Assembly: GCA_964430915.1 (NCBI GenBank) | Contig: CAYSHT010000005.1 | Coordinates: forward strand, 1-35,126 | DNA: 35,126 bases | DNA from: an uncultured Syntrophaceae bacterium | GTDB taxonomy: Bacteria; Desulfobacterota; Syntrophia; Syntrophales; UBA2210 | Direction: 5' to 3' | Position numbers and translations under genes: made by a program | Shown here: positions 1 to 26,947 of the stretch, in pieces | How positions within the stretch are numbered: the first letter of the stretch is position 1 | Layout: each line of letters starts with the position of its first letter | Notes under the pieces: model-generated | What the model was told of the DNA's origin: nothing | Database searches by the model: none | The model's input: the letters and a program-made list of their open reading frames with translations, nothing else

Positions 1-118
1 TGAATTGAACAGCGAGCGCATTCCCCGCTGCTTGCGGCGAGGTTAGCGAGCGAATATAAAATAAACATTTTCCTTAGCAATCGGAGATTCTTCGCAACTT
101 GTTGCGGGGAGATTCAAT
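1..118 (+). repeat. Structured intergenic repeat, copy 1 (left end clipped by about 1 nt at the window edge)
   Basis: Aligns by eye with 14422-14540, 14650-14800 and 22272-22365. Shared layout: (t)tgaattgaa, agcgagcg, GC hairpin ccgc-N5-gcgg, ttagcgagcgaat, A-rich tract, ttccttagcaatcggagattc, hairpin cttcgcaac-tt-gttgcgggg (90-109), gagattcaat. Confidence 0.8.
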
Positions 119-10092: not shown

Positions 10093-11013
10093 ATGACTGT
10101 TGGTGAGGAATTGCGAAGAAAGATAATAAATAGGGTCTCGGGACGAGTCCTTTTCGATGAACGGATGTGCAATCACACATCAATGGGTGTTGGCGGAAAG
10201 GTGGATATTCTCTTTTATCCCCATGGCGTGAAGGAGGTTGAGGAGGCGGTTTCTGTTCTCGTAGCGGAAGATATACCCTTTTTGGCTGTGGGAAACTGCA
10301 CGAATCTTCTCGTAGGGGATGGCGGCTACAGGGGGTGCCTGATTTCACTCACGGATCTTCAACAATTTGAGATCAATGAAGAATCTGACGGGAGGGTATC
10401 TCTCTATGCAGAATCGGGTGTTCCCCTTTCACGCATCGTAGAAGCCTCCGTTAAAGAATCGCTTGAGGGGCTGGAGTTTTGTGCAGGAATACCGGGGAGT
10501 GTCGGTGGCGGTGTATGGATGAATGCCGGTGCCTACGGGAGAGAAATGAAGGATACCATAGGATCGGTTGTCGTTGTGAACGGTAATGGAAAAAGGAAAC
10601 AAATTGAAAGAGAAGACCTCCATTTCGAATATAGAGGGCTCGATCTGCCCGAAAGCACCGTAATAACCGGAGCCACCTTTGACTTGCTGAAGGGACAGAA
10701 AGAAGAGATTCAAAGAAGGGTTGCCGATATCCTGAATGCGAGGAGAGAGAAACACCCGCTTGGCGAGAGAAGCGCAGGCTCTGTTTTTAAAAACCCGCCA
10801 TCATCACCTGCGGGCAGGATCATCGATGAAGTGGGACTCAAAGGCACAAAAAGTGGTAGGGCGATGATATCGGAGAAGCATGGCAATTTCATTGTGAATC
10901 TCGGAGGGGCAACAACTGAGGATATCCTTACACTGATAGATATCATTAGAAAGAGGGTATTTGTGGAAAAGGGCATCAAACTTGAAACAGAAGTAAAAAT
11001 TATCGGGGAATAG
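10093..11013 (+). CDS. murB: UDP-N-acetylenolpyruvoylglucosamine reductase
   Basis: 306 aa with a PCMH-type FAD-binding N-terminal domain and the C-terminal SAGSVFKNP motif. dcw position. Confidence 0.88.
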   Translation: MTVGEELRRKIINRVSGRVLFDERMCNHTSMGVGGKVDILFYPHGVKEVEEAVSVLVAEDIPFLAVGNCTNLLVGDGGYRGCLISLTDLQQFEINEESDGRVSLYAESGVPLSRIVEASVKESLEGLEFCAGIPGSVGGGVWMNAGAYGREMKDTIGSVVVVNGNGKRKQIEREDLHFEYRGLDLPESTVITGATFDLLKGQKEEIQRRVADILNARREKHPLGERSAGSVFKNPPSSPAGRIIDEVGLKGTKSGRAMISEKHGNFIVNLGGATTEDILTLIDIIRKRVFVEKGIKLETEVKIIGE

Positions 11014-11015
11014 CT

Positions 11016-11858
11016 ATGAAAAAGTCCCTGAAGTCCTCAATGGGGACGAAAAAAAACAGAATCAAGAGACGATCGGGGAAAATTATACGAGAGAGTGTAA
11101 AGGCCCTGATGGTCCTTGGCATTTCCGGAGGACTGGCCCTCCTCATGGTATATGCTTATAATTACGCAATTTGTGCGCCCTATTTCGAACTCGGCGATAC
11201 GACAGTCAGGGGATGTGCAAAGGTAAGTGAGCGAGAGGTCCGTGAGCTTGCCGGGGTCGATGCATCGATGAATATTCTGGCGTTAAATCTCGATAAAATG
11301 ACGGATAAGATCAGGGGAAATCCCTGGATCAAAGATGTATCGATCGGAAGAGAGCTTCCCAACAGGCTGGTGATTGAGATTGTTGAGAGGGAAGCGGCGG
11401 CACTGATTAAGAAAAATGATGATCTCTACATCGTTGACAGGAATGAAGAGATATTCAAGGGGTTCGGGGAGGGTGATTGCATTAACCTTCCGGTGCTGAC
11501 GGGATTTTGTGAGAACGGGGTAGTCAATAAGGGTCTTTTGAGGATGGCATTTGAACTTCTGGATTATCTTTCCCGAAGCAGCACTTTTCCGAAAATGGAA
11601 AATGTTTCCGAAATAAACGGAAACGGTATTTACGGATTTTCGGTATTTACAAATAATCAAATGTTAATTCAGCTTGGTTTTGGAAATTATGAAAAGAAAA
11701 TTAAGCGATTGAACAGGATTCTTCTAGATCTGGCAAGGAAGGATCTTGATGAGGGATGTTTGAAGATAGATTTGGCTGATTGCAACAGGGTCATCGTTCA
11801 GCATAGGGATTATTTCGATAGAAAAAGACCAGAGGGGCGCTCACGCACAAAGATATGA
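11016..11858 (+). CDS. ftsQ: Cell division protein FtsQ
   Basis: Basic N-terminus, a single TM (ALMVLGISGGLALLMVYAY), then a POTRA-like region. Sits between murB and ftsA. Confidence 0.75.
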   Translation: MKKSLKSSMGTKKNRIKRRSGKIIRESVKALMVLGISGGLALLMVYAYNYAICAPYFELGDTTVRGCAKVSEREVRELAGVDASMNILALNLDKMTDKIRGNPWIKDVSIGRELPNRLVIEIVEREAAALIKKNDDLYIVDRNEEIFKGFGEGDCINLPVLTGFCENGVVNKGLLRMAFELLDYLSRSSTFPKMENVSEINGNGIYGFSVFTNNQMLIQLGFGNYEKKIKRLNRILLDLARKDLDEGCLKIDLADCNRVIVQHRDYFDRKRPEGRSRTKI

Positions 11859-11880
11859 AGTTTTAATGATCGGTGTATAG

Positions 11881-13107
11881 ATGTCAAAAAAAGGGAACAT
11901 AATAGTAGGGCTCGATATCGGGACAACAAAAATCTGTGCAATTGTTGGTGAGGTAACTGAAACCGGCATCGACGTCATAGGAATTGGTACCCATCCCTCG
12001 AAGGGCCTGAGGAAGGGCGTTGTGGTTAATATTGACAGCACTGTGGATTCCATAAAGAGGGCTATTGAGGAAGCGGAGCTGATGTCAGGATATGAGATAA
12101 AGGCAGTATATACGGGAATTGCCGGAGCTCATATTAAGGGCATGAACAGTCACGGTATCGTGGCTGTGAAGAGTGGTGAAGTTGAAGCGGCTGACGTAAA
12201 AAGAGCAATTGAGGCGGCAAAGGCTATCGTCGTGCCTTTGGACAGGGAAGTCGTTCATGTATTGCCTCAGTACTATGTCGTCGATGAGCAGGACGGTATC
12301 AAAGAGCCGATAGGGATGTCAGGAGTAAGGCTTGAAGCAAAGATTCATGTAGTAATCGGTGCAGTTACGTCTATTCAGAACATCATAAAATCGGTTAACC
12401 GTGTGGGACTTGATGTGAATGATATAGTGCTCGAACAGTTGGCATCCAGCAGGGCCGTTCTCAGTCCCGACGAAACGGAGCTTGGGGTAGGCCTTATAGA
12501 TATTGGTGGAGGAACGACCGATATCGCGGTATTTGCCGAAGGTTGTATTAAACATACGGCGGTTTTACCACTGGGAGGCAATTACGTTACCAACGATATA
12601 GCGGTTGGTTTAAGAACACCAGCAATAGAAGCAGAAAAGATAAAGATCAAATATGGATGCGCCTATACTCCGATGATACCTCAGGATGAGACGATAGAGG
12701 TCTCGAGTGTCGGCGGCAGAGGGCCTCGAAAGGTGTCGAGGCAGGTTCTGGGTGAGATTATCGAGCCTCGTCTCGAGGAAATTCTGAGCCTGGCCAACAG
12801 GGAGATAGTAAGATCGGGTTACGAGGATCTTCTTGCGGCAGGTATTGTTTTAACTGGCGGAACGTCTATCTTGGAGGGAATAACAGAACTGGGTGAACAG
12901 ATATTCAATATGCCGGTAAGAAGGGGAAGTCCCTCTGATGTGGGGGGTATTACGGATATAGTTAACAGTCCCATATATGCCACCGGGGTAGGACTTGTTA
13001 TTCACGGGAACAACAACCAGTCCGGTCTGGTGGTAAGAAGAAATGAAAGAAGTTTAGTAAAAAAAATAGCCAGGAGAATGAAACGATGGTTCGACGACTT
13101 TTTTTAG
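11881..13107 (+). CDS. ftsA: Cell division protein FtsA
   Basis: Actin-fold phosphate motifs [15 protein letters not shown] and [13 protein letters not shown]-terminal amphipathic helix [15 protein letters not shown]. Confidence 0.92.
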
Positions 13108-13123: not shown

Positions 13124-14284
13124 ATGTTCGAATTAGTACAAGGTGGTAAGGGTACGGGTGCAAAGATAAAGGTTATCGGTGTCGGTGGCGGAGGAGGAAA
13201 CGCCGTGAACATGATGATATCGTATAACTTGAGTGGAGTGGATTTCGTTGCTGCGAATACGGATTCGCAGGCCCTGACGGTATCCAAGGCACCGATAAAA
13301 ATACAATTGGGGACCGAGGTAACAAAGGGCCTTGGTGCAGGATCGGATCCCGATGTGGGCAAGAGGGCAGCCATTGAGTCTCAGGACAGAATCAGTGATG
13401 TCCTGGATGGGGCCGATATGGTCTTCATTACGGCCGGTCTTGGAGGTGGAACGGGTACGGGTGGAGCTCCCGTTATGGCCGAGATCGCAAAGGATTTGGG
13501 GGCCCTTACGGTTGCCGTTGTTACAAAACCTTTTCAGTTCGAGGGAAAAAGGAGAGAGAAACAGGCCGAAGAGGGGCTGATCGAGCTTAAGAAGATGGTT
13601 GACAGCCTCATAGTGATACCGAACCAGAGGCTTTTGAGTATCAGTGGCAGAAACATGTCCCTTTCCGATGCATTCAAAAAGGCCGACGATATCCTCTATC
13701 ACGGTGTAAAGGGGATCTCGGATCTCATAATGGTTCCCGGTCTCATTAATCTCGATTTTGCCGATGTCAAGAATATAATGTCAGAGATGGGGTTGGCACT
13801 CATGGGTACGGGAATTGCGAGCGGTGAAAGCAGGGCAGTTGAAGCGGCGCAAAAAGCGATATCCTCTCCCCTTCTCGAAGACAACTCGATTCAGGGTGCT
13901 AGAGGTGTCCTTCTCAGCATTACCGGCGGACCCGATATGACCCTCTTTGAGGTCAACGAAGCCTCTTCTCTTGTCCAGGCCGAAGCTCACAATGATGCAA
14001 ATATCATCTTTGGAACCGTTATTGATGAAGATATGGGAGATGAAATGCGCGTCACCGTAATCGCCACCGGTTTCAATGCATCGGACAAGAAAAGAGACAT
14101 AGTGTCCGAGAATATGTCGAGTTTTGCTACCCGCAAAAAGGAAGATATTTCCAAGCCTACCTTTATGAGAAGGAAAGAGGAGGCTAATTCTGAAAAACCG
14201 GTTGTTATCAGGATGGGTATGATCAATGATGAGGAAAACATTGATTATGAAACACCTGCTTTTTTGAGAAAACAGGCCGATTGA
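13124..14284 (+). CDS. ftsZ: Cell division GTPase FtsZ
   Basis: Tubulin signature [11 protein letters not shown]7-loop NLDFADV, and conserved C-terminal peptide [11 protein letters not shown]. Confidence 0.97.
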
Positions 14285-14421
14285 TGGAGTAGAAATGATA
14301 AAAAGAAAAAATTGGTCCGACTTTTCGGTTCCTTAGATTGCGTCTCTCGGAAACAGTATGTAGTTTCTTGTAATTATGTTATCGGCTTTTTAATAGATAC
14401 TCTTTTCATTAGATTCTTATC

Positions 14422-14540
14422 TTGAATTGAGAAGCGATTGCATTCCCCGCTTTCTGCGACGGGGTTAGCGAGCGAATAAAAAACAAACACTTTCCTTAAC
14501 AATCGGAGATTCCCTGCAGCTTGTTGCAGGGAGTTTCAAT
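14422..14540 (+). repeat. Structured intergenic repeat, copy 2 (full length, 119 nt)
   Basis: Same layout as copy 1. Hairpin 2 is ccctgcagc-tt-gttgcaggg (14512-14531). Confidence 0.8.
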
Positions 14541-14649
14541 ATCTAAGTATATATTCACATAGGCAATGTTTCAAAAAATACTATGTTATCGCGAGAAAAT
14601 ACTATAGTATTCTTCTGTAAGTTGTATATTCCGCTTTGTTTCTAAAGGA

Positions 14650-14800
14650 TTGAACTGAGAAGTGAGCATTTTCCGCTACGTGCGGTGGTGTTAGCGAGCG
14701 AATAAAAAATACATTATTCCTCAATCCCGATAAAAGGGGATAATTTCTAAAGTACTAAACAGTCGGAGATTCCCCGTAACAAGTTGCGGGGAGATTCGAT
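14650..14800 (+). repeat. Structured intergenic repeat, copy 3 (diverged, with an internal insertion of roughly 35 nt)
   Basis: ttgaactgagaag..ccgc-tacgt-gcgg..ttagcgagcgaataaaaaat. An extra segment contains atccc-N8-gggat. Then agtcggagattc plus hairpin ccccgtaac-aa-gttgcgggg (14772-14791) and gagattcgat. Confidence 0.7.
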
Positions 14801-14834
14801 TTTCAACTATTCATTATAAGCCAGGGGGTACACT

Positions 14835-16070
14835 ATGGCAATCAATGATCTGTTTTTGTGTCCTCAGGAGTGGGTTGACGATGGTGCGAAAGATTTTGTC
14901 TCTCTTGTCAGGAAGTGGGCAGACAGAGAGATCATATCGAAACGCCACGAGTACCGGCTGAACTACGAGGATCTTTTTATTGAAAAGAGGCTGAAACTGA
15001 TCGGAGACATAGGCCTTGAAAGGCTCGTTCTGCCCGAAAGTTACGGAGGTTACGGATGGAACGAACCGGCCGGGGCATCGGGCATTACGGCAGTTCTGAG
15101 TGAAGTAGGAAGGGCCGATGCCGCGATCGGATTCGCCCTTGCCATCAAATTTGCCCTTTTCTCCGTGATTGCCATGAAACCCAGTATAAGCGATGTCCTC
15201 TGTGATACCTTGGTGCCGCTCAGCTTTACCGAAGGCATTAATGACGTGACGCTGATCCTGCCGGGGGCTGGTGTTGCGGATAGCGAGACGCCACTTTTTT
15301 TCGGCAGATCAGTTATATCCCGTATAGAAAAGACAGATGGGGGATATAGTATAACCGGAGATAAACTGAGACCGGTGGGGTGTGGCAGGAACGCCAGTCT
15401 CTACTGTGTCGTCTGCTCAACTGGGGAGGGGGAAATTGTTCTTGCCTTTGTCCCGAGTGAGACGGAGGGCGTCGTAAGGGGCGATGCTATAAAGGATACA
15501 GGACTTAATGCATGTAAAAATGCGGATATTACCTTTGATAATGCAATAATACCAGCCGAGAACGTGATCTGTCGGGAGGGATCGGTATTGGAACTGTATT
15601 CATGGCTCAATCTTTTCCTCAGTGCTGTGACCCTCGGTGCGGCATTCAATTTTTTCGAGATAGTGCATGAATGGGCCGAAACCAGGGTTATAAAAGGTGG
15701 CGTAGTAATGAAAGAAAACCCCCTCTGTGCGTACGTTCTGGCCGATGTGGCGGGGGAGATAGCCACGGCAAAGCTGTTGTGTTACAGCCTGGCCCAGAGT
15801 TTTGCCGGAAGCGAGCAATATGGCGGAATCGGCGGGCAGGCGATTTATACCTACGCGCAGATGACAGGAGAACGTGTTCATCGGGGTGTTGTGAAGGCAA
15901 TTAACAGGGGCATGGAGCTTATGGGCTCGGCAGGTTACTCAAAGGAATGGCATGTGGAAAAACACTGGCGGGATGTCAAAACGATACAGTCTCATCTTAG
16001 TGGTATCGGTGCGGATGTGCCGGTTAAAATGGATATTGCCCGTTATTTTTATCAGTGCAAAGAACTTTAA
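14835..16070 (+). CDS. Acyl-CoA dehydrogenase-fold protein, subunit A (degenerate FAD and catalytic motifs)
   Basis: 411 aa with ACAD-like N-terminal helices and the C-terminal pattern EKHWRDVKTIQSHLSG in place of RDARxxxIYEGT. ILPGAGVADSE occupies the place of the TEPxxGSD motif. RBS AGGGGG at 14823-14828. Confidence 0.7.
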   Translation: MAINDLFLCPQEWVDDGAKDFVSLVRKWADREIISKRHEYRLNYEDLFIEKRLKLIGDIGLERLVLPESYGGYGWNEPAGASGITAVLSEVGRADAAIGFALAIKFALFSVIAMKPSISDVLCDTLVPLSFTEGINDVTLILPGAGVADSETPLFFGRSVISRIEKTDGGYSITGDKLRPVGCGRNASLYCVVCSTGEGEIVLAFVPSETEGVVRGDAIKDTGLNACKNADITFDNAIIPAENVICREGSVLELYSWLNLFLSAVTLGAAFNFFEIVHEWAETRVIKGGVVMKENPLCAYVLADVAGEIATAKLLCYSLAQSFAGSEQYGGIGGQAIYTYAQMTGERVHRGVVKAINRGMELMGSAGYSKEWHVEKHWRDVKTIQSHLSGIGADVPVKMDIARYFYQCKEL

Positions 16071-16085
16071 AGAGGAGTGCATGCA

Positions 16086-17360
16086 ATGGACCATTTTGAC
16101 GAGTTTTCGAGACCCAAAGAATACATATCACCCTTGGACAAGACCCTTCGCGCGGTGATCAGAAATTGGGCCGAAGAAGAGGTCATGCCAGTACGAAGGA
16201 AATTTGACGAAGACTGGAAGGACCATAAGCTCATAGGCCCCGCCTTTGATAAACTCATGGGCGAATTGGGCCTCCAAAAGGCGATGTTTCCAGAAGAATT
16301 TGGTGGATGGGGACTCACACGATCTGATTCCCTCTTCAGGATTGCCTATGCTCTCTGCGAGGAGATGGGGAGGGCTGATACGGGAATGGCGGTTGCCTGT
16401 GGCGTTACTTTCTGGCCGCTTCTCACCATACTGGTTGAACCCTATGTGAACATGAGACTCGCTGAGGAATTGGCACCCCTCTTCTGTAATACGAAAGAAG
16501 CGGTATTTGTGGCAAATGCCATGACCGAACCTCAGGGAGGGTCCGATATAGAAAATCTGGGATTTTTAAAGGGAAAAACAATAAAGACGACTGCCCGACT
16601 CGATGGTGATGAATGGGTAATCAATGGTCACAAAATCTGGCCATCGAACAGTGGTGGTGTCGCGAAACTCTTTGGTGTTCCCTGTACCACACAACCGGGC
16701 TCAGGTGACCCCGATGACTTTGCATTCATCTTTGTGCCGGCCGATAGTAAGGGGGTAACGCAGGGCGGCCCTTATGAAAAGGCGGGAATGTCAGGAGACA
16801 AGAACGGCGATGTGTGGTTTGAGGATGTAAGGGTACCGAAATGGTACAGGGCACATGGACCAGGCCTGGATGCGAAGGCTTTCTATCAGCTTATATCATT
16901 TGGTCAGGTGGCAAGCGTTGGTTTCTTAACAGGTGCGATGCTGAATCTCTATGAAAAGTTGTACGAATTTGTCTCTTCACGAACCTATCGCAACAGGCTT
17001 CTCAAAGAAGACGATGCTATTGCGGCTGTTATTGGTCGTATCGCCGGCGATATAGATATCTGCAGGATACTCGGTCACGAGGCCGCTATGATGGGAGACC
17101 GGAGAAATAAACCCTATGGCGAACCGATCACTTCGGAAGCGGTTGTGGGAAAGATTCGAAATATCAAGGACTTTGTTTCAGACAGGGCAGTGGAAAACTT
17201 TGGCAAGGCCATGGATGTTATGGGTGTCTATGGTACGGACAGGAATTGGGATATAGAGAAGCACTGGAGGGACGTTAAGATCATACAGCTCTGGATGGGA
17301 GGCAAGCAGCTCTGCCAGATGGAGTCGGCACGGTATTTTTTTAACTGTACAACATTGTAA
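16086..17360 (+). CDS. Acyl-CoA dehydrogenase-fold protein, subunit B (FAD motif retained, catalytic Glu not evident)
   Basis: AMTEPQGGSDIENL, WVINGHKIWPSNSG, and C-terminal EKHWRDVKIIQLWMGG. ORF is open from GTG 16077, but AGAGGAG (16071-16077) fits ATG 16086. Lies 15 nt after subunit A. Confidence 0.75.
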   Translation: MDHFDEFSRPKEYISPLDKTLRAVIRNWAEEEVMPVRRKFDEDWKDHKLIGPAFDKLMGELGLQKAMFPEEFGGWGLTRSDSLFRIAYALCEEMGRADTGMAVACGVTFWPLLTILVEPYVNMRLAEELAPLFCNTKEAVFVANAMTEPQGGSDIENLGFLKGKTIKTTARLDGDEWVINGHKIWPSNSGGVAKLFGVPCTTQPGSGDPDDFAFIFVPADSKGVTQGGPYEKAGMSGDKNGDVWFEDVRVPKWYRAHGPGLDAKAFYQLISFGQVASVGFLTGAMLNLYEKLYEFVSSRTYRNRLLKEDDAIAAVIGRIAGDIDICRILGHEAAMMGDRRNKPYGEPITSEAVVGKIRNIKDFVSDRAVENFGKAMDVMGVYGTDRNWDIEKHWRDVKIIQLWMGGKQLCQMESARYFFNCTTL

Positions 17361-17372
17361 AGGGGACTGGAT

Positions 17373-17786
17373 ATGTCTGATGATCACAATAGAGGGATTA
17401 TCGACGCAACAAACAGGATTGTAAAAGTGCTGCTTAAAAGGCCGGCATTCAAGGAGAACGTGAGGTCTATACTAAACGGTGTCGATCCCGATAATGCGAG
17501 GGAACTTGCCAGGACAATACTATGGGAGGATCCCGAAATTGTTTTGTCCCTGATGGGGGCTCTTCCTTCTCTTGCGAATTCGATGATTCGGTTTCTGGAT
17601 GAGATTATACTGCAGGTGAGGGAAAAATTTCCCCCTGAACTTCTTCATGCATTCCTGGAGGAAATCATGAAGGAATTTGATGGAGAGGCGATTAGAAGTA
17701 TAAGGGACAATATCTCTACCATGGCACAAGAGGGGTATTTTCATTATGACCCCGTAAGCGGGAAGAAGGGAGAGGGGGATGATTGA
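17373..17786 (+). CDS. Uncharacterised protein, paralogue 1 (137 aa; ILWEDP...KFPPxLL module)
   Basis: ORF lies 12 nt after the ACAD-like B gene, with RBS AGGGGA. Shares an approximately 90-aa module with the next ORF. No family recognised. Confidence 0.65.
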   Translation: MSDDHNRGIIDATNRIVKVLLKRPAFKENVRSILNGVDPDNARELARTILWEDPEIVLSLMGALPSLANSMIRFLDEIILQVREKFPPELLHAFLEEIMKEFDGEAIRSIRDNISTMAQEGYFHYDPVSGKKGEGDD

Positions 17787-18444
17787 GACAATGAAAGTGT
17801 CTGACGCGAGAGACGGGGAAGGAAGTGTGCTTGCTGAGATTATTCGAACCCCGCTCTTTAAGGACATGCTGAACAATTATCTCAGCGAGATAGACCCCCG
17901 AAGGGGCGCTGCCACGGCAAAAGTGATACTATGGGAGGATCCACAGCTTATATTATCAATTCTGACCTCGATTCCCCTCATAGTTAACTGGATAATCGTG
18001 TTTCTTGGTGAGTTGGGAAATCAGACATCGGACAAGTTTCCCCCGCAGCTTCTAAAAGGTTTTATGGCAAATATGTGGGAGGATATCGATAAGGATGCGA
18101 TGGAAGAGTGCCTGAAGAATTACGGCAGGCTCATAAAGGGATTGCTCGATGAATCACCAGAATTCCAAAGGGCTCTTCTGGAGGCGATTAAGGGTCCCGT
18201 CGCGATCGGAACAGGAAAGGGTATTAATTCTGCAGTGAGATACATAAATGACATTAACAGGCAGGATCCCATGTTTTTGAAAAAGGTGTTCTCGGGTGTT
18301 ACATCCACGATTGAAGGAAAGGAATTTACCGAGGCATCCACGAGCCTGATTAATGCTGCTCTCGATCAAAAACCCCCGCTCGTTTCATGGGTATGGCACC
18401 TGCTGAAGATGAGAATAAAAGGAAAGTTCGGAAGGCAACCCTGA
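17779..18444 (+). CDS. Uncharacterised protein, paralogue 2 (221 aa; same module plus an approximately 110-aa C-terminal extension)
   Basis: 8-nt overlap with the preceding ORF. Aligns by eye: FK..L..(I/V)DP....A..ILWEDP...LS....P...N..I.FL.E...Q...KFPP.LL..F. The C-terminus ends in the basic HLLKMRIKGKFGRQP. Confidence 0.65.
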   Translation: MIETMKVSDARDGEGSVLAEIIRTPLFKDMLNNYLSEIDPRRGAATAKVILWEDPQLILSILTSIPLIVNWIIVFLGELGNQTSDKFPPQLLKGFMANMWEDIDKDAMEECLKNYGRLIKGLLDESPEFQRALLEAIKGPVAIGTGKGINSAVRYINDINRQDPMFLKKVFSGVTSTIEGKEFTEASTSLINAALDQKPPLVSWVWHLLKMRIKGKFGRQP

Positions 18445-18473
18445 GAGGGGAAAGCCCGGGAAGGTCTTAGTTT

Positions 18474-20597
18474 ATGAGGGAAAAGGAGAGTAATACAAAG
18501 CCGGATAGCAAAGTAAAAAACAATGCAGATGATTCTTTTGACTACAAACGAATTATGATTGTGTCAGATGTAGTAGAGGAACTGAGGATTAAACAAAGCG
18601 TTATCGAATCATCAATTAATGGACTGGCAATCGGCGACCTTGATGGAAATCTGACCTATGTTAACAACGCCGCACTTGAACTATTTGGCGGGTATGAATT
18701 ATTGGAGGTCCTGGGACGTTCCGCTGTCATTTTTGCCTGTTCAGAGGATGAGGCCCTTGGTGCCCTCAGTCAGGTGCGCGAGAAGGGAACGTGGGTTGGA
18801 GATATAACAGGCAAAAAGAAGGATGGTTCTGAAATCTTCGTTAGTTTATCGGCGAATATCGTTAACAATGAAGAGGGAGAGCCTATTTTTATAATGTGTT
18901 CCTTTGTAGACATTACGGAGCGAAAGCAGATCGAGGATGAACTTCACATCAAAGAAAACGCCATTGCTTCGTCAATCAATGGCATCGGTATTGCCGATCT
19001 GGAGGGGAGGATCACCTATATCAACGATGCGGCACTGACAATGTGGGGTGCCGAAGATCCTTCTGAGGTTCTGGGAAAATCTCCCCTTGATTTTGCCGAG
19101 GACCAGGAGGAGGCGGAACGTATATTTGTAGAGTTCATCGAGAAGGGTGGCTGGACCGGCGAGGTATCGGGGAAGAGAAAGGACGGTTCACCGATCACGG
19201 TTCTTATCACGGCGAGCCTGGTGAAAAACGAGAAGGGTGAGCCGATCTGCATGATGGATTCCTTTGTTGATATTACGGCACGTAAGAAAATGGAAGAGGA
19301 ACTCCGCATCAAAGACAGTGCGATACGATCATCAATCAACGGTATTGCCATTGGAGATCTGGAGGGGAGGATCACCTATATCAACGATGCGGCACTGACA
19401 ATGTGGGGTGCCGAAGATCCTTCTGAGGTTCTGGGAAAATCTCCCCTTGATTTTGCCGAGGACCAGGAGGAGGCGGAACGTATATTTGTAGAGTTCATCG
19501 AGAAGGGTGGCTGGACCGGCGAGGTATCGGGGAAGAGAAAGGACGGTTCACCGATCACGGTTCTTATCACGGCGAGCCTGGTGAAAAACGAGAAGGGTGA
19601 GCCGATCTGCATGATGGATTCCTTTGTTGATATTACGGCACGTAAGAAAATGGAAGAGGAACTCCGCATCAAAGACAGTGCGATACGATCATCAATCAAC
19701 GGTATTGCCATTGGAGATCTTGAGGGGAATATTACCTATGTAAATGAGGCCTTCATAGAGTTGTGGGGCGGTGAAGATATATCTGAGATACTGGGAAAAT
19801 CGGCTGTAACATTTGCCGAGTCTGAAGAAGAAGGACATGATATTATAACTGTTTTGATGAAAGAAGGAAACTGGATCGGAGAAATAACGGGAATCAGAAA
19901 AGATGGCATACCCATAACGGTTCAACTCTCGGCAAGTATGGTTTCGAATGAAAAGGGCGAACCGATTTGCATGATGTGTTCCTTTGTCGACATTACAAAA
20001 CGGAAGGAAGCGGAGGATAAGCTACAGAGGTCACACGAAGAACTGGAGATCAAGGTTCAGGAGCGAACGCAGGAACTTACAGAGGCTAATATACAATTGA
20101 AGAAAGAGATTGATGAGCGCAAAGAGGCGGAAAAGGCTCTATTGCTGAAGGAGAAAGAGCTCGAACTCAAATCCCTTAATCTCGAGGAGGCAAACACGGC
20201 ATTGAAGGTCTTGCTGAGACAGGGGGAAAAGGATAAGATAGAGCTCGAAAATAAGGTACTTACGAACATAAAAGAGCTTGTCATGCCAGGTATCGAGAAA
20301 CTGAGGAGTTGCAGACTCGACGAAAAGCAGAAGGCCTATGTAAACATACTAGAATCAAATCTCGACGACATAATTTCTCCCTTCCTTCAGAAACTCTCGT
20401 CGAAGTATATGGATTTTACTCCTACCGAGATACAGGTCGCCAACCTCGTGAGAGAAGGAAAACCGACCAAAGAAATATCGGAATTATTGAATATCTCTGA
20501 AAGGGGCATAGAATTTCACAGGAACAACATTAGAATGAAGCTGGGTTTGAAAAACAGAAAGACAAACCTCAGGACCTACCTTTTGTCCCTAACCTGA
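18474..20597 (+). CDS. One-component transcriptional regulator: four PAS domains, a coiled-coil-like linker and a LuxR/FixJ-type HTH
   Basis: Four approximately 120-aa repeats, each starting S(S)INGxxIxDLxGxxTYxNxA and ending FVDIT(E/A/K)RK. A Glu/Lys-rich helical stretch follows. C-terminal TEIQVANLVREGKPTKEISELLNISERGIEFHRNNIRMKLG. Confidence 0.8.
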   Translation: MREKESNTKPDSKVKNNADDSFDYKRIMIVSDVVEELRIKQSVIESSINGLAIGDLDGNLTYVNNAALELFGGYELLEVLGRSAVIFACSEDEALGALSQVREKGTWVGDITGKKKDGSEIFVSLSANIVNNEEGEPIFIMCSFVDITERKQIEDELHIKENAIASSINGIGIADLEGRITYINDAALTMWGAEDPSEVLGKSPLDFAEDQEEAERIFVEFIEKGGWTGEVSGKRKDGSPITVLITASLVKNEKGEPICMMDSFVDITARKKMEEELRIKDSAIRSSINGIAIGDLEGRITYINDAALTMWGAEDPSEVLGKSPLDFAEDQEEAERIFVEFIEKGGWTGEVSGKRKDGSPITVLITASLVKNEKGEPICMMDSFVDITARKKMEEELRIKDSAIRSSINGIAIGDLEGNITYVNEAFIELWGGEDISEILGKSAVTFAESEEEGHDIITVLMKEGNWIGEITGIRKDGIPITVQLSASMVSNEKGEPICMMCSFVDITKRKEAEDKLQRSHEELEIKVQERTQELTEANIQLKKEIDERKEAEKALLLKEKELELKSLNLEEANTALKVLLRQGEKDKIELENKVLTNIKELVMPGIEKLRSCRLDEKQKAYVNILESNLDDIISPFLQKLSSKYMDFTPTEIQVANLVREGKPTKEISELLNISERGIEFHRNNIRMKLGLKNRKTNLRTYLLSLT
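18996..19720 (+). repeat. Perfect 360-bp in-frame tandem duplication (one whole PAS domain) inside the regulator gene
   Basis: 18996-19360 is identical base for base to 19356-19720 when the printed lines are compared. Period 360 nt, equal to 120 codons. Confidence 0.95.
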
Positions 20598-20716
20598 TAG
20601 ACATAGCTGAGACAGCCTCATTTTTACTATAGAAGCTCTGCGGAGCCCCGTATAAGAGGAATCTCCGCTTCAGCTCCGACTAGCTTGCCGGAAACTCCGG
20701 TTGTTTAGTAAGTTAG

Positions 20717-20753
20717 AAATTATTTTCTGTGTTTTCCTGTCAGAGAATAATTT
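20717..20753. promoter_or_regulatory. Imperfect 13-bp inverted repeat (candidate operator) between the regulator gene and acd
   Basis: aaattattttctg (20717-20729), 11-nt spacer, cagagaataattt (20741-20753). One mismatch. AT-rich context about 210 nt upstream of the acd start. Confidence 0.25.
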
Positions 20754-20961
20754 TGTTAACGCACTTATCTCATTTATCGGGATTAATGAAATATTTATTA
20801 TTTTATGCGCTTCCTGTTCAGTTCAAACTTCTTTCCATGGAGGCCGTCAAATTCATGCTTGAATGATTGTTTCTTTTATCGTATCAGTATTTCCCGTCAC
20901 CATTCATCTCTTTTTCGGGGGGATATAATCTGGGACACAAAAAACCAAAAGGAGGAAATTC

Positions 20962-22113
20962 ATGTCGCTACTGGAAAACTATTACACTCAGGAACACTCA
21001 ATATTCAGGGAATCGATTCGGCGGTTTTTCGACAAAGAGGTAACGCCCTATGTTGAAGAATGGGAGAAAGCAGGAATCGTTCCACGCGAGATCTGGAAAA
21101 AATTCGGAGCGCAGGGTTTTCTATGTCCCTGGCTGCCTGAGGAATACGGTGGAGTGGAAGCGGACTTTATTTATTCTCTCATCGGCATTGAGGAAGCTGC
21201 AAGCACCCATTGTGCGGGATTCGTTTTTCCCCTTCACTCGGATATCATTGTTCCCTATATTTACGCTTACGGAAACGACGAACAGAAGAAACGCTGGCTT
21301 CCCGGCTGTGCGACAGGTGAATACATAACGGCCGTCGCCATGACGGAGCCTGGAACCGGGTCGGACCTGGCGGCCATTCGTGCAACCGCGGTCAAAGACG
21401 GTAATAATTATATAATCAACGGTCAGAAGACCTTTATATCGAACGGTATCAACGGCAACCTCGTGATCGTTGCCGCTCAGACCGAGTCTGAGGCAGACTC
21501 TCCCTATGCGAGGATGTCACTCTTTGTGGTCGAAGGAGATACACCCGGATTCGAAAGGGGACGGAATCTTGAAAAGATCGGGCTCCACTCTCAGGATACT
21601 GCGGAAATGTCCTTCGTTGATTGCGTTGTTCCGGCAGAGAATCTCCTTGGTCAGGAAGGAAAAGGGTTTTACTATCTTATGGAAGAACTCCAGCAGGAAA
21701 GACTTGTCTCAGCAATGATGAGTCAGATCTTTGCTGAGGAGGCCCTGCGTCTGACCATAGAATATACCAAGAGCCGCGAGGCCTTCGGCCGTCCCATTAG
21801 CCGTTTCCAGTATATCTCATTCGAACTCGCCAAGATGGCTACGGATGTTGAACTGGGACGAACATTTATGGAAAGCCTCATTATAGATCACATGGCGGGT
21901 AAGGAACTCGTAAAAAAGGCATCCATGGCGAAATACTGGATTGCTGAAATGTTAAACCAGGTGGTAGGAAAGTGCGTTCAGTTTCATGGAGGTTACGGAT
22001 ACATGGAGGAATATCCTATCGCACGTCTCTTCAGGGATGCGAGGGTACAGACAATATATGCGGGAACTTCCGAGATCATGCTCCTGATTATCAGCCGATA
22101 TCTCGGACTTTAG
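20962..22113 (+). CDS. Acyl-CoA dehydrogenase, LCAD/IVD-type catalytic-base arrangement
   Basis: 383 aa with AMTEPGTGSDLA, KTFISNG, GKGFYYLMEELQQERL and RDARVQTIYAGTSEIM. Strong RBS AAGGAGGA at 20949-20956. Confidence 0.9.
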   Translation: MSLLENYYTQEHSIFRESIRRFFDKEVTPYVEEWEKAGIVPREIWKKFGAQGFLCPWLPEEYGGVEADFIYSLIGIEEAASTHCAGFVFPLHSDIIVPYIYAYGNDEQKKRWLPGCATGEYITAVAMTEPGTGSDLAAIRATAVKDGNNYIINGQKTFISNGINGNLVIVAAQTESEADSPYARMSLFVVEGDTPGFERGRNLEKIGLHSQDTAEMSFVDCVVPAENLLGQEGKGFYYLMEELQQERLVSAMMSQIFAEEALRLTIEYTKSREAFGRPISRFQYISFELAKMATDVELGRTFMESLIIDHMAGKELVKKASMAKYWIAEMLNQVVGKCVQFHGGYGYMEEYPIARLFRDARVQTIYAGTSEIMLLIISRYLGL

Positions 22114-22271
22114 AAAAAGCTCTATTTACAGGGGAATACTGGGTCAGGTGATAAACATATTTAAGTGTTTTCATATTATTATTGTCCTGTCCCTTTCCAT
22201 CCTTTAACATATCTTCAGTGTGAGGCGGAACCTTCATGAAAAAAAACAGTATACCACTGAAGACATGCCAG

Positions 22272-22365
22272 CTTGAATTGAACAGCGAGCGCGTTCCCCG
22301 CTGCTTGCGGCGGGGTTAGCGAGCAAATAAAAAATAAAAATTTTCCTTAACAATCGGAGATTCAA
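22272..22365 (+). repeat. Structured intergenic repeat, copy 4 (hairpin 2 precisely absent)
   Basis: Near-identical to copy 1 through ..ttccttaacaatcggagattcaat. The segment between the two gagattc direct repeats is missing. Confidence 0.8.
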
Positions 22366-22417
22366 TTATGAAATTTGTTCTGATACACTCTTTCGCCGAC
22401 ACTGAATGATAGAATAA

Positions 22418-22446
22418 TTGACCTCCTTTCAAAAGGGGAGTATCTT
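22418..22446 (+). promoter_or_regulatory. Candidate sigma70-type promoter upstream of lutA (TTGACC-N17-TATCTT)
   Basis: ttgacc at 22418-22423, 17-nt spacer containing the near-palindrome ctcctttcaaaaggggag, and tatctt at 22441-22446. Pattern only. Confidence 0.3.
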
Positions 22447-22572
22447 CTTTTTCACGATCAAAAGGTGAAAGCTGAGCCATAGCCTTTTTGATGCCAGAAA
22501 ATTATTTGTTGCAACCGGTAGTGCCGTTTTTCATTTCTTCAGAGAATAGTAGAATAAGCAAGGAGGGTCCTT

Positions 22573-23313
22573 ATGAAAAAGGTGTCGCTGTTTATCCCCT
22601 GTACCGTTGATATTATCCTTCCCGAGATAGGAGAAGAGACCACGTATTTGCTCGAACGTCTCGGGGTTTCGCCCATTTACCATGAGAAACAGACATGCTG
22701 CGGCCAGCCTGCAATTAACGCAGGTTATGTTGACGAGGCAAAAAAGTCGGCGAAACACTTTATCGAGGTCTTTGGAGACGATGAGGTCGTGGTCAGTCCT
22801 TCAGGGTCCTGCCTTCATACGGCGAAATACAGGTATCCGGAGCTTCTCTCGGACGAGCCGGTGTGGCTGCGGCGGGCAGAGGAGCTGTCATCCCGGCTCT
22901 TTGAGCTGTCCCAGTATATTGTCGATGTGCTGGGAGTTGAGGACGTGGGTGCCTCATTTGAGGGCACGGTCACCTACCACGAATCCTGCCAAATTCTGAG
23001 AGGCCTGGGGGTTTCCGAACAACCAAAGAAACTCATAACTGCCGTAAATGGAGCGGAATTTGTTCCTCTCAACAGTGCTGACAAATGCTGTGGTTTCGGG
23101 GGAGAATTCGCGAATAACTACCCCGATATTTCGGAGGAGATGGTGAAAGACAAGGTGCAAAACTATATAGCGAGCGGTGCAGATCTGCTCGTCCTCTGCG
23201 AGCCGGGGTGTCTTCTCAATATTAATGGGTACCTGAGCCGCAATCATCCAGAAAAAAAGGCCCTTCATATCGCAACGCTTCTTGCAGATACGGGAAGGGA
23301 GGTGCGGCTATGA
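22573..23313 (+). CDS. lutA: Lactate utilisation protein A (cysteine-rich CCG-domain Fe-S oxidoreductase, LutA/YkgE-like)
   Basis: Two CCG motifs (QTCCGQP, DKCCGFGG). 246 aa. RBS AAGGAGGG. ATGA overlap with the next gene. lutA-lutB-lutC order. Confidence 0.8.
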   Translation: MKKVSLFIPCTVDIILPEIGEETTYLLERLGVSPIYHEKQTCCGQPAINAGYVDEAKKSAKHFIEVFGDDEVVVSPSGSCLHTAKYRYPELLSDEPVWLRRAEELSSRLFELSQYIVDVLGVEDVGASFEGTVTYHESCQILRGLGVSEQPKKLITAVNGAEFVPLNSADKCCGFGGEFANNYPDISEEMVKDKVQNYIASGADLLVLCEPGCLLNINGYLSRNHPEKKALHIATLLADTGREVRL

Positions 23314-24746
23314 AGATAAAAACGGAACAGTTTGTCGAGGTAGCACGAAGGGAAATGGCGGATCTGAATTCACGAGCATTTCTGCAACTACTCCCCCCTG
23401 TCATAGCGGCGATGCGAAAAGCCGCAATGGCAACCTTTCCCGATCCGGATGCGGCCACTGAATATTCGAGGGCCATCAGGGCTGAGGTGGTTGCGCGATT
23501 GCCGGAACTTCTTGAAGAATTCGAGGCAAATGCAATTGCACGCGGTGTCAAGGTGATCTGGGCGCGGGATGCGGAGGAGGCAAACGATTTTATTCTCAAT
23601 CTTGCCCTGAAGCGAGGGATCAAATATGTCACGAAGGGTAAATCCATGGTCAGTGAGGAACTGGGAACCAACGATGTACTCATCAAAAACGGCATAGAGG
23701 CATTTGAAACGGACCTCGGTGAGTTTATCGCCCAGCAGCTCAATCGCCCTCCCTTTCATATCGTAGGTCCGGCCGTCAATGTTTCAGTCCAGGAGATATG
23801 CGATCTCTTTATGGAAAAGGCGGGCATGGAGGAAGCCACCACGGATCCTGTTGAACTTGGGTATGCGGCGCGTGTTTATCTGAGAGATAAGTTTCATCAT
23901 CTCGAGATGGGTATTACGGGCGTCAATATGGCCGTGGCCGAGACGGGTTCAATTATAAATGTTGAAAATGAGGGAAATATACGCCTGACCAAATCATCTC
24001 CCAGGGTCCAGGTATCCGTCATGAGCCTTGAAAAGGTCGTTCCCACCATGCGAGATGCAATACATGTACTCAGGCTCTTGTGCAGAAACTGCACCGGGCA
24101 GTCAATTTCCTCATATGTGTCTATAGATACGGGTCCGAAAAAAGACGATGAGATTGACGGACCGGAAGAACTCTATATCGTCATTGTTGATAACGGGCGC
24201 TCCGATCTTTACGGGGACGTAAAGGCCCGTGAGGCCCTCAGATGCATACGCTGCGGAGCATGTCTAAATCACTGCCCTGTTTACGCGACGATCGGCGGTT
24301 ATCCTTACGGCTGGGCCTATTCCGGTCCGATGGGTCAGGTGTTAAATCCCCTCCTTCTCGGTCTGGACAGAACGCAAGACCTTTATCGAGCCTGTACGTT
24401 ATGCGGAGCGTGCAAAGAGGTGTGTCCCTCAGGCATAGACCATCCAAGCATGTTCCTCTACTACCGCTCAAAGGACGTGAAGGGTGATAGTAAATTGAAA
24501 GGGAAAAAACGCGACTGGAAGGAAGTTGGCATTTTCAAGATATTCACCCTTGCATCCACACTACCATGGCTTTGGAATCTGGGTGCAAGGCTGATACGTC
24601 CCTTCTATAATCGAAATGCCAAAAATGGTGTGGTCTCTCATATATCGGGGCTCTTTGAAGGCTGGTTCAGAAAAAGGGACCTCCCGGCCATGCCTGCAAA
24701 GACATTCCACGAGCGCTGGAAGGATATAGAAAAGAGGTTATCTTAA
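23310..24746 (+). CDS. lutB: Lactate utilisation protein B (4Fe-4S / LUD-domain protein, LutB/YkgF-like)
   Basis: 478 aa. Two ferredoxin-type motifs, CIRCGACLNHCP and CTLCGACKEVCP, following a LUD-like N-terminal domain. Confidence 0.8.
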   Translation: MKIKTEQFVEVARREMADLNSRAFLQLLPPVIAAMRKAAMATFPDPDAATEYSRAIRAEVVARLPELLEEFEANAIARGVKVIWARDAEEANDFILNLALKRGIKYVTKGKSMVSEELGTNDVLIKNGIEAFETDLGEFIAQQLNRPPFHIVGPAVNVSVQEICDLFMEKAGMEEATTDPVELGYAARVYLRDKFHHLEMGITGVNMAVAETGSIINVENEGNIRLTKSSPRVQVSVMSLEKVVPTMRDAIHVLRLLCRNCTGQSISSYVSIDTGPKKDDEIDGPEELYIVIVDNGRSDLYGDVKAREALRCIRCGACLNHCPVYATIGGYPYGWAYSGPMGQVLNPLLLGLDRTQDLYRACTLCGACKEVCPSGIDHPSMFLYYRSKDVKGDSKLKGKKRDWKEVGIFKIFTLASTLPWLWNLGARLIRPFYNRNAKNGVVSHISGLFEGWFRKRDLPAMPAKTFHERWKDIEKRLS

Positions 24747-24773
24747 TAACGAATCGGGGGAGAGGAGAATAAA

Positions 24774-25445
24774 ATGGTACGGAACGCAAGAGACGAAATC
24801 CTCGGTAAACTCAGGGCTGTTCACAGGGCTGATGTCCCTCAGCGACCCGAGGTGCCGTCATTGAATGAAACGGCCTTCGACAGAGAGGAAATGATAGCCA
24901 AATTTACAGAGGCACTCTTCCTGCAGACAGGTGTTGTACACAGGGTCAAGGACAATCAGGAAGCCCTGGATAAGCTTGCGGAGATCGCAAAAGAGGAAAA
25001 ACTGGAAAAGGTTATGGCCTCGACGGATGACGTAATTGCACCGCTGGATTTACCTTCATGGGGGAAGGAAAACGGAATTCAGATTCTTACGGCCGGGGAT
25101 TTCAAGGACAGAAATTCCTTTAAAGATGCGGTCTTTGATGAGGTAAATGCGGGCATTACGGGAGCGAATTTTGCCGTGGCGGAATCGGGCACGCTTGGAC
25201 TCATCCATGACAGGGATCAGGCAAGGCTGATCTCTCTTGCACCCATACTCCATATTGCCATTGTGCCGACGGAGAGATTTGTTCCCATATATGAAAGTGC
25301 AATCGAGAAGGTTTTTGAAGATATAAATGCTGTTCCCGGCCAGTTCACTTTTATTACGGGGCCGAGCATGACGGCCGATATTCAGGCTACCATCTTCAGA
25401 GGGATGCACGGACCGAGGAAGCTGATCGTCATCCTGACAGGTTGA
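24774..25445 (+). CDS. lutC: Lactate utilisation protein C (LUD-domain, LutC/YkgG-like)
   Basis: 223 aa, third gene of the lutABC arrangement. RBS GAGGAG. Call rests on size, position and general LUD-domain resemblance. Confidence 0.7.
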   Translation: MVRNARDEILGKLRAVHRADVPQRPEVPSLNETAFDREEMIAKFTEALFLQTGVVHRVKDNQEALDKLAEIAKEEKLEKVMASTDDVIAPLDLPSWGKENGIQILTAGDFKDRNSFKDAVFDEVNAGITGANFAVAESGTLGLIHDRDQARLISLAPILHIAIVPTERFVPIYESAIEKVFEDINAVPGQFTFITGPSMTADIQATIFRGMHGPRKLIVILTG

Positions 25446-25489
25446 TTTTTTCAGATATGGAATCATATCGAATAAGTGGAGGGCATTGA

Positions 25490-25765
25490 ATGAAGCCGAA
25501 TGTGGTTATTATAAATCTTCGGGATAATGTTGCCGTGATACTTGAGGATGTAAAAGAGGGAGACATCATTAATCTTCCCAACGGTAAAATGTTTACCGCC
25601 CGTTCCGATATTCCTTACAGTCATAAGGTTGCATTGAAAGACATAGAAGCTGGAGGGTACATTTATAAGTACGGTGAGGTAATCGGAGCGGTAAAGGAAA
25701 ACATAAGAAAAGGCGACTGGATTCATACCCACAATCTGGATATCGAGGCGAAGGTTGAGGAATGA
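25490..25765 (+). CDS. UxaA-family small subunit (SAF-domain; SuyA / altronate-dehydratase N-terminal-like)
   Basis: 91 aa. Pattern VAVILEDVKEGD...SHKVALKDIEAGGYIYKYGEVIG is typical of the SAF domain that forms the N-terminus of UxaA/GarD. ATGA overlap with the large subunit. Confidence 0.7.
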   Translation: MKPNVVIINLRDNVAVILEDVKEGDIINLPNGKMFTARSDIPYSHKVALKDIEAGGYIYKYGEVIGAVKENIRKGDWIHTHNLDIEAKVEE

Positions 25766-26928: not shown

Positions 26929-26947
26929 GAGAAAAAGGGGGTATAAG

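Follow-up and report, generated by a model that had tools for sequence, protein, structure and literature searches.

The locus described here raises the question of what two small proteins of no recognised family do beside a pair of flavoenzyme-like proteins. Their genes, P1 and P2, lie in a contig of an uncultured Syntrophaceae bacterium (GenBank assembly GCA_964430915.1, contig CAYSHT010000005.1), of which positions 1 to 35,126 of the forward strand were analysed; this whole stretch of 35,126 nucleotides (nt) is called the window below. They directly follow two genes, A and B, encoding proteins similar to acyl-CoA dehydrogenases (ACADs). The P1/P2 family is previously undescribed and is formed by an all-alpha, six-helix module of about 105 residues with an invariant W-E-D-P turn. 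Since P1 and P2 are always found beside an unusual ACAD-like pair, in both phyla represented among the loci examined, they most likely belong to an uncharacterised anaerobic enzyme system as its dedicated subunits, which probably tether it to the membrane. As to their role, we give about an even chance to the view that they make up a heteromeric adaptor, itself non-catalytic, by which an ACAD-like flavoenzyme, also heteromeric, is attached to the membrane. The features of the two genes, as taken from the list of open reading frames (ORFs) and, for the spacer and the junction, from direct reading of the sequence, are as follows.

17373–17786, plus strand: P1, 137 amino acids (aa), one helical module named WEDP after its turn and a short acidic tail (ORF list)
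17394–17729, plus strand: WEDP module of P1, residues ~8–119
17779–18444, plus strand: P2, 221 aa, a WEDP module, a conserved helical C-terminal half and a putative C-terminal anchor (ORF list)
17818–18192, plus strand: WEDP module of P2, residues 14–138
17361–17372, plus strand: spacer between B and P1, 12 nt, with the Shine-Dalgarno-like (SD-like) AGGGGA at 17361–17366
17768–17786, plus strand: P1/P2 junction, with the SD-like GGGAGAGGGGG at 17768–17778, the ATG of P2 at 17779–17781 and the TGA of P1 at 17784–17786

The B gene ends with TAA at 17358–17360, and the ATG of P1 at 17373 is 12 nt further on. The TGA of P1 and the ATG of P2 share ATGATTGA, so that the genes overlap by 8 nt. The SD-like stretches preceding both starts, AGGGGA for P1 and GGGAGAGGGGG for P2, are purine-rich. 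A tight or overlapping P1/P2 junction recurs in four related loci (L004, L006, L007 and L012; loci are denoted by L and a number throughout). Judging by the gene overlap only, the two products may be co-expressed stoichiometrically. The original prediction, made from the letters of the window, placed both ORFs at exactly these coordinates and quoted peptides that are present verbatim, and the 8-nt overlap and the 12-nt gap after B that it described are both read in the sequence.

It also reported a module of about 90 aa common to P1 and P2. The two proteins are indeed paralogous, and the common module is about 105 aa long. BLASTP aligns P1 with P2 over 103 aa with zero gaps and 32% identity (E 1e-22), and the profile–profile comparison of the P1 and P2 ortholog families by hhalign yields a probability of 99.7% (E 5e-26). 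This similarity is far beyond chance. For the C-terminal half of P2, considered as a possible degenerate repeat of the module, the hhalign values are E 0.0016 against P1, with a probability of only 16%, and E 0.017 against the N-terminal module of P2 itself.

The family has no counterpart in the databases searched. In Pfam-A 2025 and NCBIfam r20, the best match of P1 and P2 has an E of 0.04, and all matches are below the cut-offs; ten long or fused relatives match no Pfam or NCBIfam family, and no recurrent family emerges when 61 members are scanned individually against the same collections. The family profile finds nothing significant among the PDB sequences (hmmsearch), the best match, with E 0.1, being a de novo design. 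The AlphaFold2 (AF2) model of P1 consists of six helices, with a mean predicted local distance difference test score (pLDDT) of 82 and a predicted template modelling score (pTM) of 0.59. The model of P2 is all-helical, with a pLDDT of about 80 over residues 14–138 and less than 50 beyond. A Foldseek comparison with the PDB, one of the checks proposed along with the original prediction, was run on the AF2 models of P1 and P2 and yielded no fold match (best E 2.7 for P2 and 9.6 for P1). The early statement that no family is recognised is thereby borne out, as Pfam, NCBIfam, the PDB sequences and Foldseek against the PDB all lack a relative. Homology to a characterised domain, which would have spoken for an unrelated role, was found in none of Pfam, NCBIfam and PDB. 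A relationship of the module to the ACAD domains themselves was considered and rejected (hhalign probability 0.07% against the alignment of the ACADs of the window). No description of a P1/P2-type gene cluster was found in the literature.

When 1.84 billion representatives were searched exhaustively by hmmsearch, 356 family proteins were retrieved at E ≤1e-3 and 189 at E ≤1e-10; these 356 are representatives of clusters at 50% identity. A search with a mixed profile yielded 99 clusters, most of them from metagenome-assembled genomes (MAGs) of anaerobic Actinomycetota. The family ranges over the Desulfobacterota and anaerobic Actinomycetota MAGs, and all its sequences come from uncultured organisms. 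A scan of GTDB genomes, made with Desulfobacterota-type patterns, returned three loci and is no measure of taxonomic range.

Two types of proteins may be distinguished. Proteins of the P1 type carry the motif K-G-L-I-D-A at the N-terminus and lack a hydrophobic tail; in the Actinomycetota their tail is rich in Lys, Ala and Pro. Those of the P2 type contain the motif P-x3-N-W, and their tail is hydrophobic. Each type occurs in both phyla, and hence the duplication is ancient: it preceded the spread of the family to two phyla, and both copies have been kept. Natural fusions exist as well. P0044, of 348 aa, contains both modules and the P2 tail, as read in its sequence. Seven proteins of 354–386 aa, each with two matched stretches (P0123, P0124, P0126, P0129, P0132, P0134 and P0137), are probably also P1–P2 fusions. 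Finally, hmmsearch reveals family proteins of 450–600 aa with three to five module matches. The long proteins of the gene clusters described below match P2 via its C-terminal half and tail with hhalign probabilities of 88–95%; by these profile matches, they are distant multi-module paralogues of P2 and hence members of the family.

The window proteins have 22 (P1) and 20 (P2) orthologs, with identity in the range of 56–95%. They are all annotated as hypothetical and come from metagenomes and MAGs of Deltaproteobacteria or Syntrophobacterales. Pairwise comparison with four orthologous loci gives, for both P1 and P2, a ratio of non-synonymous to synonymous substitution rates (dN/dS) of 0.13–0.33 at dS of about 1. 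P1 and P2 are genuine genes under purifying selection. The residues invariant in the 22 P1 orthologs include W51, E52, D53 and P54; W-E-D-P and K-F-P-P are conserved in both P1 and P2. Neither Cys nor His is conserved in the ortholog sets, and a nucleotide-binding motif is absent.

In all loci with readable flanks, P1–P2 adjoins at least two ACAD-like genes, in both phyla and in at least five gene orders. In the window and in L001–L005, the order A, B, P1, P2 is found behind the division and cell wall (dcw)/ftsZ cluster, which, by synteny with L001 and L004, makes up the upstream 14 kb of the window. In L007 and L008 the order is P1, P2, A, B, and in L006 and L009 it is HGD-D, HGD-D, activase, SCP2-like, B, P1, P2, A, B. 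The Actinomycetota clusters (L011–L014, L016, L017 and L019) start with a divergent ferredoxin-domain gene, (TetR), B, A, (B), P1, P2; after P2 there follow a membrane protein of 138–148 aa, a long paralogue of 459–551 aa, two HGD-D genes, (ferredoxin) and the activase. L018 is rearranged, with the long protein, HGD-D, HGD-D, ACAD, ACAD, P1 and P2. L015 features a fragment of a B-type ACAD, 74% identical to B of the window, and then a fused P1–P2, TetR, a 468-aa protein and HGD-D.

Most lineages have an extended unit, with the long paralogue as a third family member, a pair of HGD-D genes, an activase and ferredoxins; the HGD-D pair and the BcrAD/BadFG-type activase are seen in L006, L009 and L011–L019. 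The HGD-D proteins fall outside the characterised subgroups, as their best NCBIfam match, the double-cubane reductase model, scores 165–183 bits with the cut-off being 350. The four genes A, B, P1 and P2 of the window are the minimal version of the unit. In L010, a closely related MAG with 91% nucleotide identity to the window, a second, HGD-D-linked copy is situated on another contig, L009.

These observations bear on the view that P1 and P2 are fast-evolving filler, halves of a broken fused gene, or proteins of the cell division (dcw/ftsZ) cluster. Fused versions do exist, and in the lineage of the window the genes are located 3 kb downstream of ftsZ. However, both ORFs have dN/dS of 0.13–0.33, and the split P1/P2 arrangement is kept in more than ten divergent loci from two phyla. 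The adjacency to dcw is limited to one lineage, the Actinomycetota copies being found beside dnaB or elsewhere, and even in the window an intergenic region of 550 nt separates ftsZ from A. All three variants are highly improbable, and are effectively excluded by conservation and synteny. A lack of conservation or synteny in related genomes had been named in advance as a sign of filler ORFs; instead, the survey of gene neighbourhoods, also proposed at that stage, found that each of the loci inspected has ACAD-like genes next to P1–P2, with the linkage spanning the Desulfobacterota and the Actinomycetota.

The partners of P1 and P2 in the window are the following.

14835–16070, plus strand: ACAD-like A, 411 aa, a degenerate, probably non-catalytic partner (Pfam, MAFFT)
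16077–17360, plus strand: ACAD-like B, 427 aa, the subunit with the flavin motif (Pfam, MAFFT)

Both match the N-terminal, middle and C-terminal ACAD domains of Pfam (PF02771, PF02770 and PF00441/PF08028). In A these matches are weak but significant, with the middle domain below the cut-off. All PDB relatives of A and B are ACADs, those of B being ordinary ones (best E 1e-28). Eighteen subunits of the A and B types were aligned by MAFFT together with the ordinary ACAD of the window (20962–22113), and the catalytic Glu was sought at the positions of the MCAD E376 and IVD E254 types. The B-type subunits keep the flavin motif, which in the window reads MTEPQGGSDI. A lacks the TEPxxGSD motif, the window protein having ILPGAGVAD there, and the position of the catalytic Glu is occupied by Leu or Ile in all A orthologs (Leu in the window). 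Most B orthologs retain the canonical Glu within L-[YFV]-E-G-G. In B of the window (residues ~405–412) one sees L-W-M-G-G where SCAD and MCAD have I-Y-E-G-T, so that the catalytic Glu is replaced by Met, and the alternative, IVD-type site is occupied by Gly. The Glu-to-Met variant (LWMGG) recurs in L004_B, in L011_2 from the Actinomycetota and in the L015 fragment. As a control of the alignment, the third ACAD of the window (20962–22113) carries the IVD-type Glu. Thus A and B of the window have ACAD domains and neither has the catalytic glutamate; because of the Met in B, their chemistry may differ from simple alpha,beta-dehydrogenation.

The C-terminus of P2 may provide a link to the membrane.

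18373–18441, plus strand: C-terminal helix of P2 and basic cluster (KPPLVSWVWHLLKMRIKGKFGRQP), amphipathic, Trp-rich, a putative membrane-targeting sequence

In the window it reads PPLVSWVWHLLKMRIKGKFGRQP, a helix that is amphipathic, rich in Trp and basic at its end, and its conserved form in the orthologs is SWxWxLxKxRIKRKF. The net charge of the last 12 residues is at least +3 in 88% of 74 P2-type proteins. The mean Kyte-Doolittle hydropathy over 13 residues exceeds 1.5 in half of these 74 (50%; maximum 3.1) and in only 2% of 63 P1-type proteins. At the same position, the Actinomycetota P2 orthologs have a hydrophobic stretch of 15–20 residues resembling a transmembrane (TM) segment and followed by Arg/Lys, such as AGAVIALLAVLVVFKKIRGR (hydropathy 3.1) and VTWAFISWSIKGLRGKK. 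P2 shows the sequence features of tail-anchored and membrane-targeting proteins: one C-terminal helix within about 30 residues of the end, basic flanks, and no other TM segment or signal peptide. The C-termini of the long paralogues, with their basic end, resemble the P2 tail. Hence the tail looks like a membrane anchor, and the statement of the original prediction that there is no TM motif has to be corrected: the tail is amphipathic and basic in the window and TM-like in the Actinomycetota orthologs.

The neighbours point in the same direction. In the Actinomycetota, a small polytopic membrane protein with the C-terminus GTCCGEDDGCCRG is encoded directly after P2 (L012, L014, L016, L017 and L019), and in L012 it occupies positions 10780–11226 and is followed by the long paralogue with a basic C-terminus at 11272–12693. 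The HGD-D-linked clusters of the Desulfobacterota contain a gene for an SCP2-like, lipid-binding protein. The tail, the polytopic membrane protein and the SCP2-like neighbours together indicate a membrane or lipid interface.

The mechanism that we favour may now be formulated. P1 and P2, being co-translated, would associate with each other into a heterodimer. They would bind the A/B flavoprotein, in which B is the subunit with the flavin motif and A is degenerate, as non-catalytic adaptors in a physical complex. The hydrophobic or amphipathic, basic-ended C-terminal helix of P2 would tether this assembly to the cytoplasmic membrane, where it would act on a lipophilic acyl-thioester. Its physiological role might be in an anaerobic acyl-CoA redox pathway linked to a radical enzyme and operating alongside an enzyme of the benzoyl-CoA reductase (BCR) or 2-hydroxyacyl-CoA dehydratase (HAD) type. 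The latter is proposed because most related genomes embed the unit with the long paralogue, the HGD-D pair, the ATP-dependent activase and ferredoxins. The first reading of the window had suggested that P1 and P2 serve the ACAD-like pair as accessory or partner proteins within a complex not described before. The novelty of the family, the linkage across phyla and the P1–P2 fusions support the partnership; the complex as then conceived was too small, since it usually includes the long paralogue, the HGD-D pair, the activase and the ferredoxins.

Several points weigh against this mechanism. Among the scanned ORFs of at least 150 aa in the 14.8–35.1 kb part of the window, there is no HGD-D or activase. 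B of the window lacks the canonical catalytic Glu, which clouds the activity of the enzyme here. The 13-residue hydropathy of the window P2 tail is less than 1, so that it is amphipathic and not clearly transmembrane. With such a helix, the target could be a protein surface or nucleic acid rather than lipid. The C-terminal half and tail of P2 are modelled at pLDDT below 50. Finally, gene linkage is a sign of functional association and not of a stable complex.

Some of these points agree with a possible, if unlikely, alternative, in which P1 and P2 play no part at the membrane and serve the ACAD-like heteromer as soluble subunits, for its structure or assembly, or as chaperones, the basic amphipathic tail of P2 contacting the enzyme or some other partner. 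The same linkage and fusions would be explained, the tail in the window is only amphipathic, and P1 of the window has no hydrophobic tail. However, the strongly hydrophobic stretch of 15–20 residues with Arg/Lys in the Actinomycetota P2 proteins (AGAVIALLAVLVVFKKIRGR) hardly fits a soluble interface, and proteins binding membranes or lipids co-occur in the clusters.

The presence of the SCP2-like gene in the HGD-D-linked clusters of the Desulfobacterota also allows one to consider P1 and P2 as carriers of lipids or acyl chains, similar to SCP2, which bind and present a hydrophobic substrate and are not scaffolds. The ortholog alignments have many conserved hydrophobic positions, which would suit helical bundles of this kind. 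On the other hand, Pfam and Foldseek against the PDB reveal no likeness to SCP2 or to any other lipid-transfer fold, either in sequence or in structure, and the family invariants (W-E-D-P, K28, N70 and E78) are polar or turn-forming, more like an interaction or structural motif. We consider such carriers very unlikely.

Returning to the membrane-tethered adaptor, it may be extended to the larger clusters. The WEDP proteins (P1, P2 and the paralogue of 460–550 aa) would then form a membrane-anchored scaffold that holds the ACAD-like flavoenzyme and an ATP-driven radical enzyme of the BCR/HAD type in a metabolon. In this broad form the suggestion is unlikely. If true, it would imply an unknown anaerobic machine, conserved in the Desulfobacterota and in deep-branching anaerobic Actinomycetota, for a lipophilic or membrane-resident thioester, or for coupling of enoyl/acyl-CoA redox reactions to the membrane independently of the electron transfer flavoprotein (ETF).

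The absence of ETF genes suggests yet another possibility, namely, that the P1/P2 family replaces ETF as a docking scaffold and holds the ACAD-like flavoprotein close to ferredoxins, to the HGD-D enzyme or to a quinone site of the membrane. No etfAB genes were found within any of the examined clusters; ETF genes may be situated elsewhere in these genomes. The activase is a conserved neighbour, as are one or two proteins with a ferredoxin domain. One protein, P0120 (196 aa, from an NCBI contig of 2742 nt), even joins a P1-type module to a predicted TM helix, after which comes the ferredoxin motif CxxCxxCxxxCP; this architecture may be a real fusion or an artefact of gene calling or assembly, and it is a single sequence from a short contig. 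But the family has no Pfam ETF match, and the median Cys count in 271 collected proteins is zero, hence a role for a metal or redox cofactor is unlikely. Lacking conserved Cys and His and a nucleotide-binding motif, P1 and P2 cannot carry electrons themselves, and the locus of the window has neither a ferredoxin nor an HGD-D neighbour. Replacement of ETF is thus quite unlikely.

Some other genes recur near the Actinomycetota clusters. At their edges one finds a flavoprotein of the CrtI/amine oxidase type (L016, 16424–17815, minus strand; L019, 12201–13586, minus strand) and a radical-SAM, B12-binding protein (L014, 17454–18935, minus strand; L016, 18998–20173). Genes for CooT, DUF3842 and thioredoxin are also seen nearby.

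Downstream of P2 in the window there is a regulatory gene.

18474–20597, plus strand: regulator with four PAS domains and a LuxR/GerE domain (Pfam PAS and GerE), 29 nt downstream of P2, syntenic in L001–L003

It probably encodes the regulator of the cluster. No terminator-like site was found between P2 and this gene; at that, the promoter and terminator scan performed no better than on shuffled sequence. The gene contains a 360-nt tandem duplication (18996–19739, 98% identical, 2.1 copies), which doubles one whole PAS domain. It could be an assembly artefact. The number of PAS copies varies among relatives, since the L001 ortholog has 947 aa and the window protein 707 aa.

The segment further downstream (20962–28192) contains the ordinary ACAD (YAGT and QQER, with the IVD-type Glu), genes similar to lutA, lutB and lutC, a GD_AH gene of the D-galactarate/altronate dehydratase type and a LarA-like gene (Lar_N). 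The block is syntenic in L001, where the GD_AH gene comes after a small gene with a SAF domain. It looks like an island of hydroxy-acid utilisation adjoining A-B-P1-P2.

The intergenic regions contain a dispersed repeat of about 120 nt, which forms two GC-rich hairpins and has the core ...CCCCGC...GCGACGGGGTTAGCGAGCGAATAAAAAA...TCGGAGATTCCCTGCAGCTTGTTGCAGGGAG. Its copies are as follows.

1–118, 14422–14540, 14650–14800, 22272–22363 and 20690–20723 (minus strand): copies in the window
1–116, 11015–11190 and 15508–15594: copies in L009

Two copies fill the 550-nt spacer between ftsZ and A, and one is upstream of the lutA-like gene. The repeat is also found at contig ends of the related MAG. The stems vary between copies, while the pairing is kept. 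No Rfam family was found in 14200–21100, and the repeat itself has no Rfam match. It looks like an element of the repetitive extragenic palindrome (REP) or miniature inverted-repeat transposable element (MITE) kind.

Heteromeric ACADs and the radical enzymes of the BCR/HAD type are central to the anaerobic breakdown of fatty acids, amino acids, aromatic compounds and steroids. To our knowledge, none of them needs dedicated non-catalytic helical subunits. If P1 and P2 indeed tether or organise enzymes at the membrane, this would point to an unrecognised pathway for lipophilic substrates or to an ETF-independent route of acyl-CoA redox to the membrane. The four-gene unit of the window, being the smallest version, is convenient for heterologous expression.

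The systems most similar to the larger clusters are the hadAIBC-acdB-etfBA and fldAIBC-acdA-etfBA operons and the class I benzoyl-CoA reductases, with which the related loci share the HGD-D alpha/beta pair, the BcrAD/BadFG-type activase and ACADs. Unlike the had and fld operons, the clusters considered here contain no ETF, and their HGD-D proteins are far below every NCBIfam equivalog cut-off. The family of P1, P2 and the long paralogue is unique to the present type of clusters, whereas the HGD-D part is absent from the locus of the window.

As regards the tail of P2, terminal amphipathic or hydrophobic helices with basic flanks serve as membrane-targeting sequences in MinD, FtsA and RNase E. 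The likeness is in sequence character only, with no homology.

The ACAD-like pair itself resembles the alpha2beta2 ACADs (ChsE4-ChsE5/FadE26-27, ChsE1-ChsE2, IpdE1-IpdE2 and PimC-PimD), which are likewise encoded by two adjacent diverged ACAD paralogues. In these enzymes, for example in ChsE4-ChsE5, the catalytic Glu belongs to one subunit, its partner being degenerate (PMC11153573). Similarly, the flavin motif is retained here by B only, together with the Glu in most orthologs, and A has lost both; the same pattern of adjacent paralogues is seen in the window, although B of the window itself has Met at the Glu position, unlike the alpha2beta2 ACADs. The latter have no extra small subunits, whereas here two, and often three, helical proteins of the new family are invariably co-encoded. 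The context is different as well: strict-anaerobe lineages and linkage to HGD-D in our case, steroid catabolism in theirs.

Finally, in VLCAD, hydrophobic and positively charged residues of the C-terminal helical domain hold the ACAD on the membrane for lipophilic substrates (PMC9237092). We propose that P1 and P2 may be functional analogues, not homologues, of this domain of VLCAD and ACAD9. The appendage is a fused domain in VLCAD and ACAD9, whereas P1 and P2 are separate polypeptides and represent a new protein family that accompanies an enzyme of a known kind.

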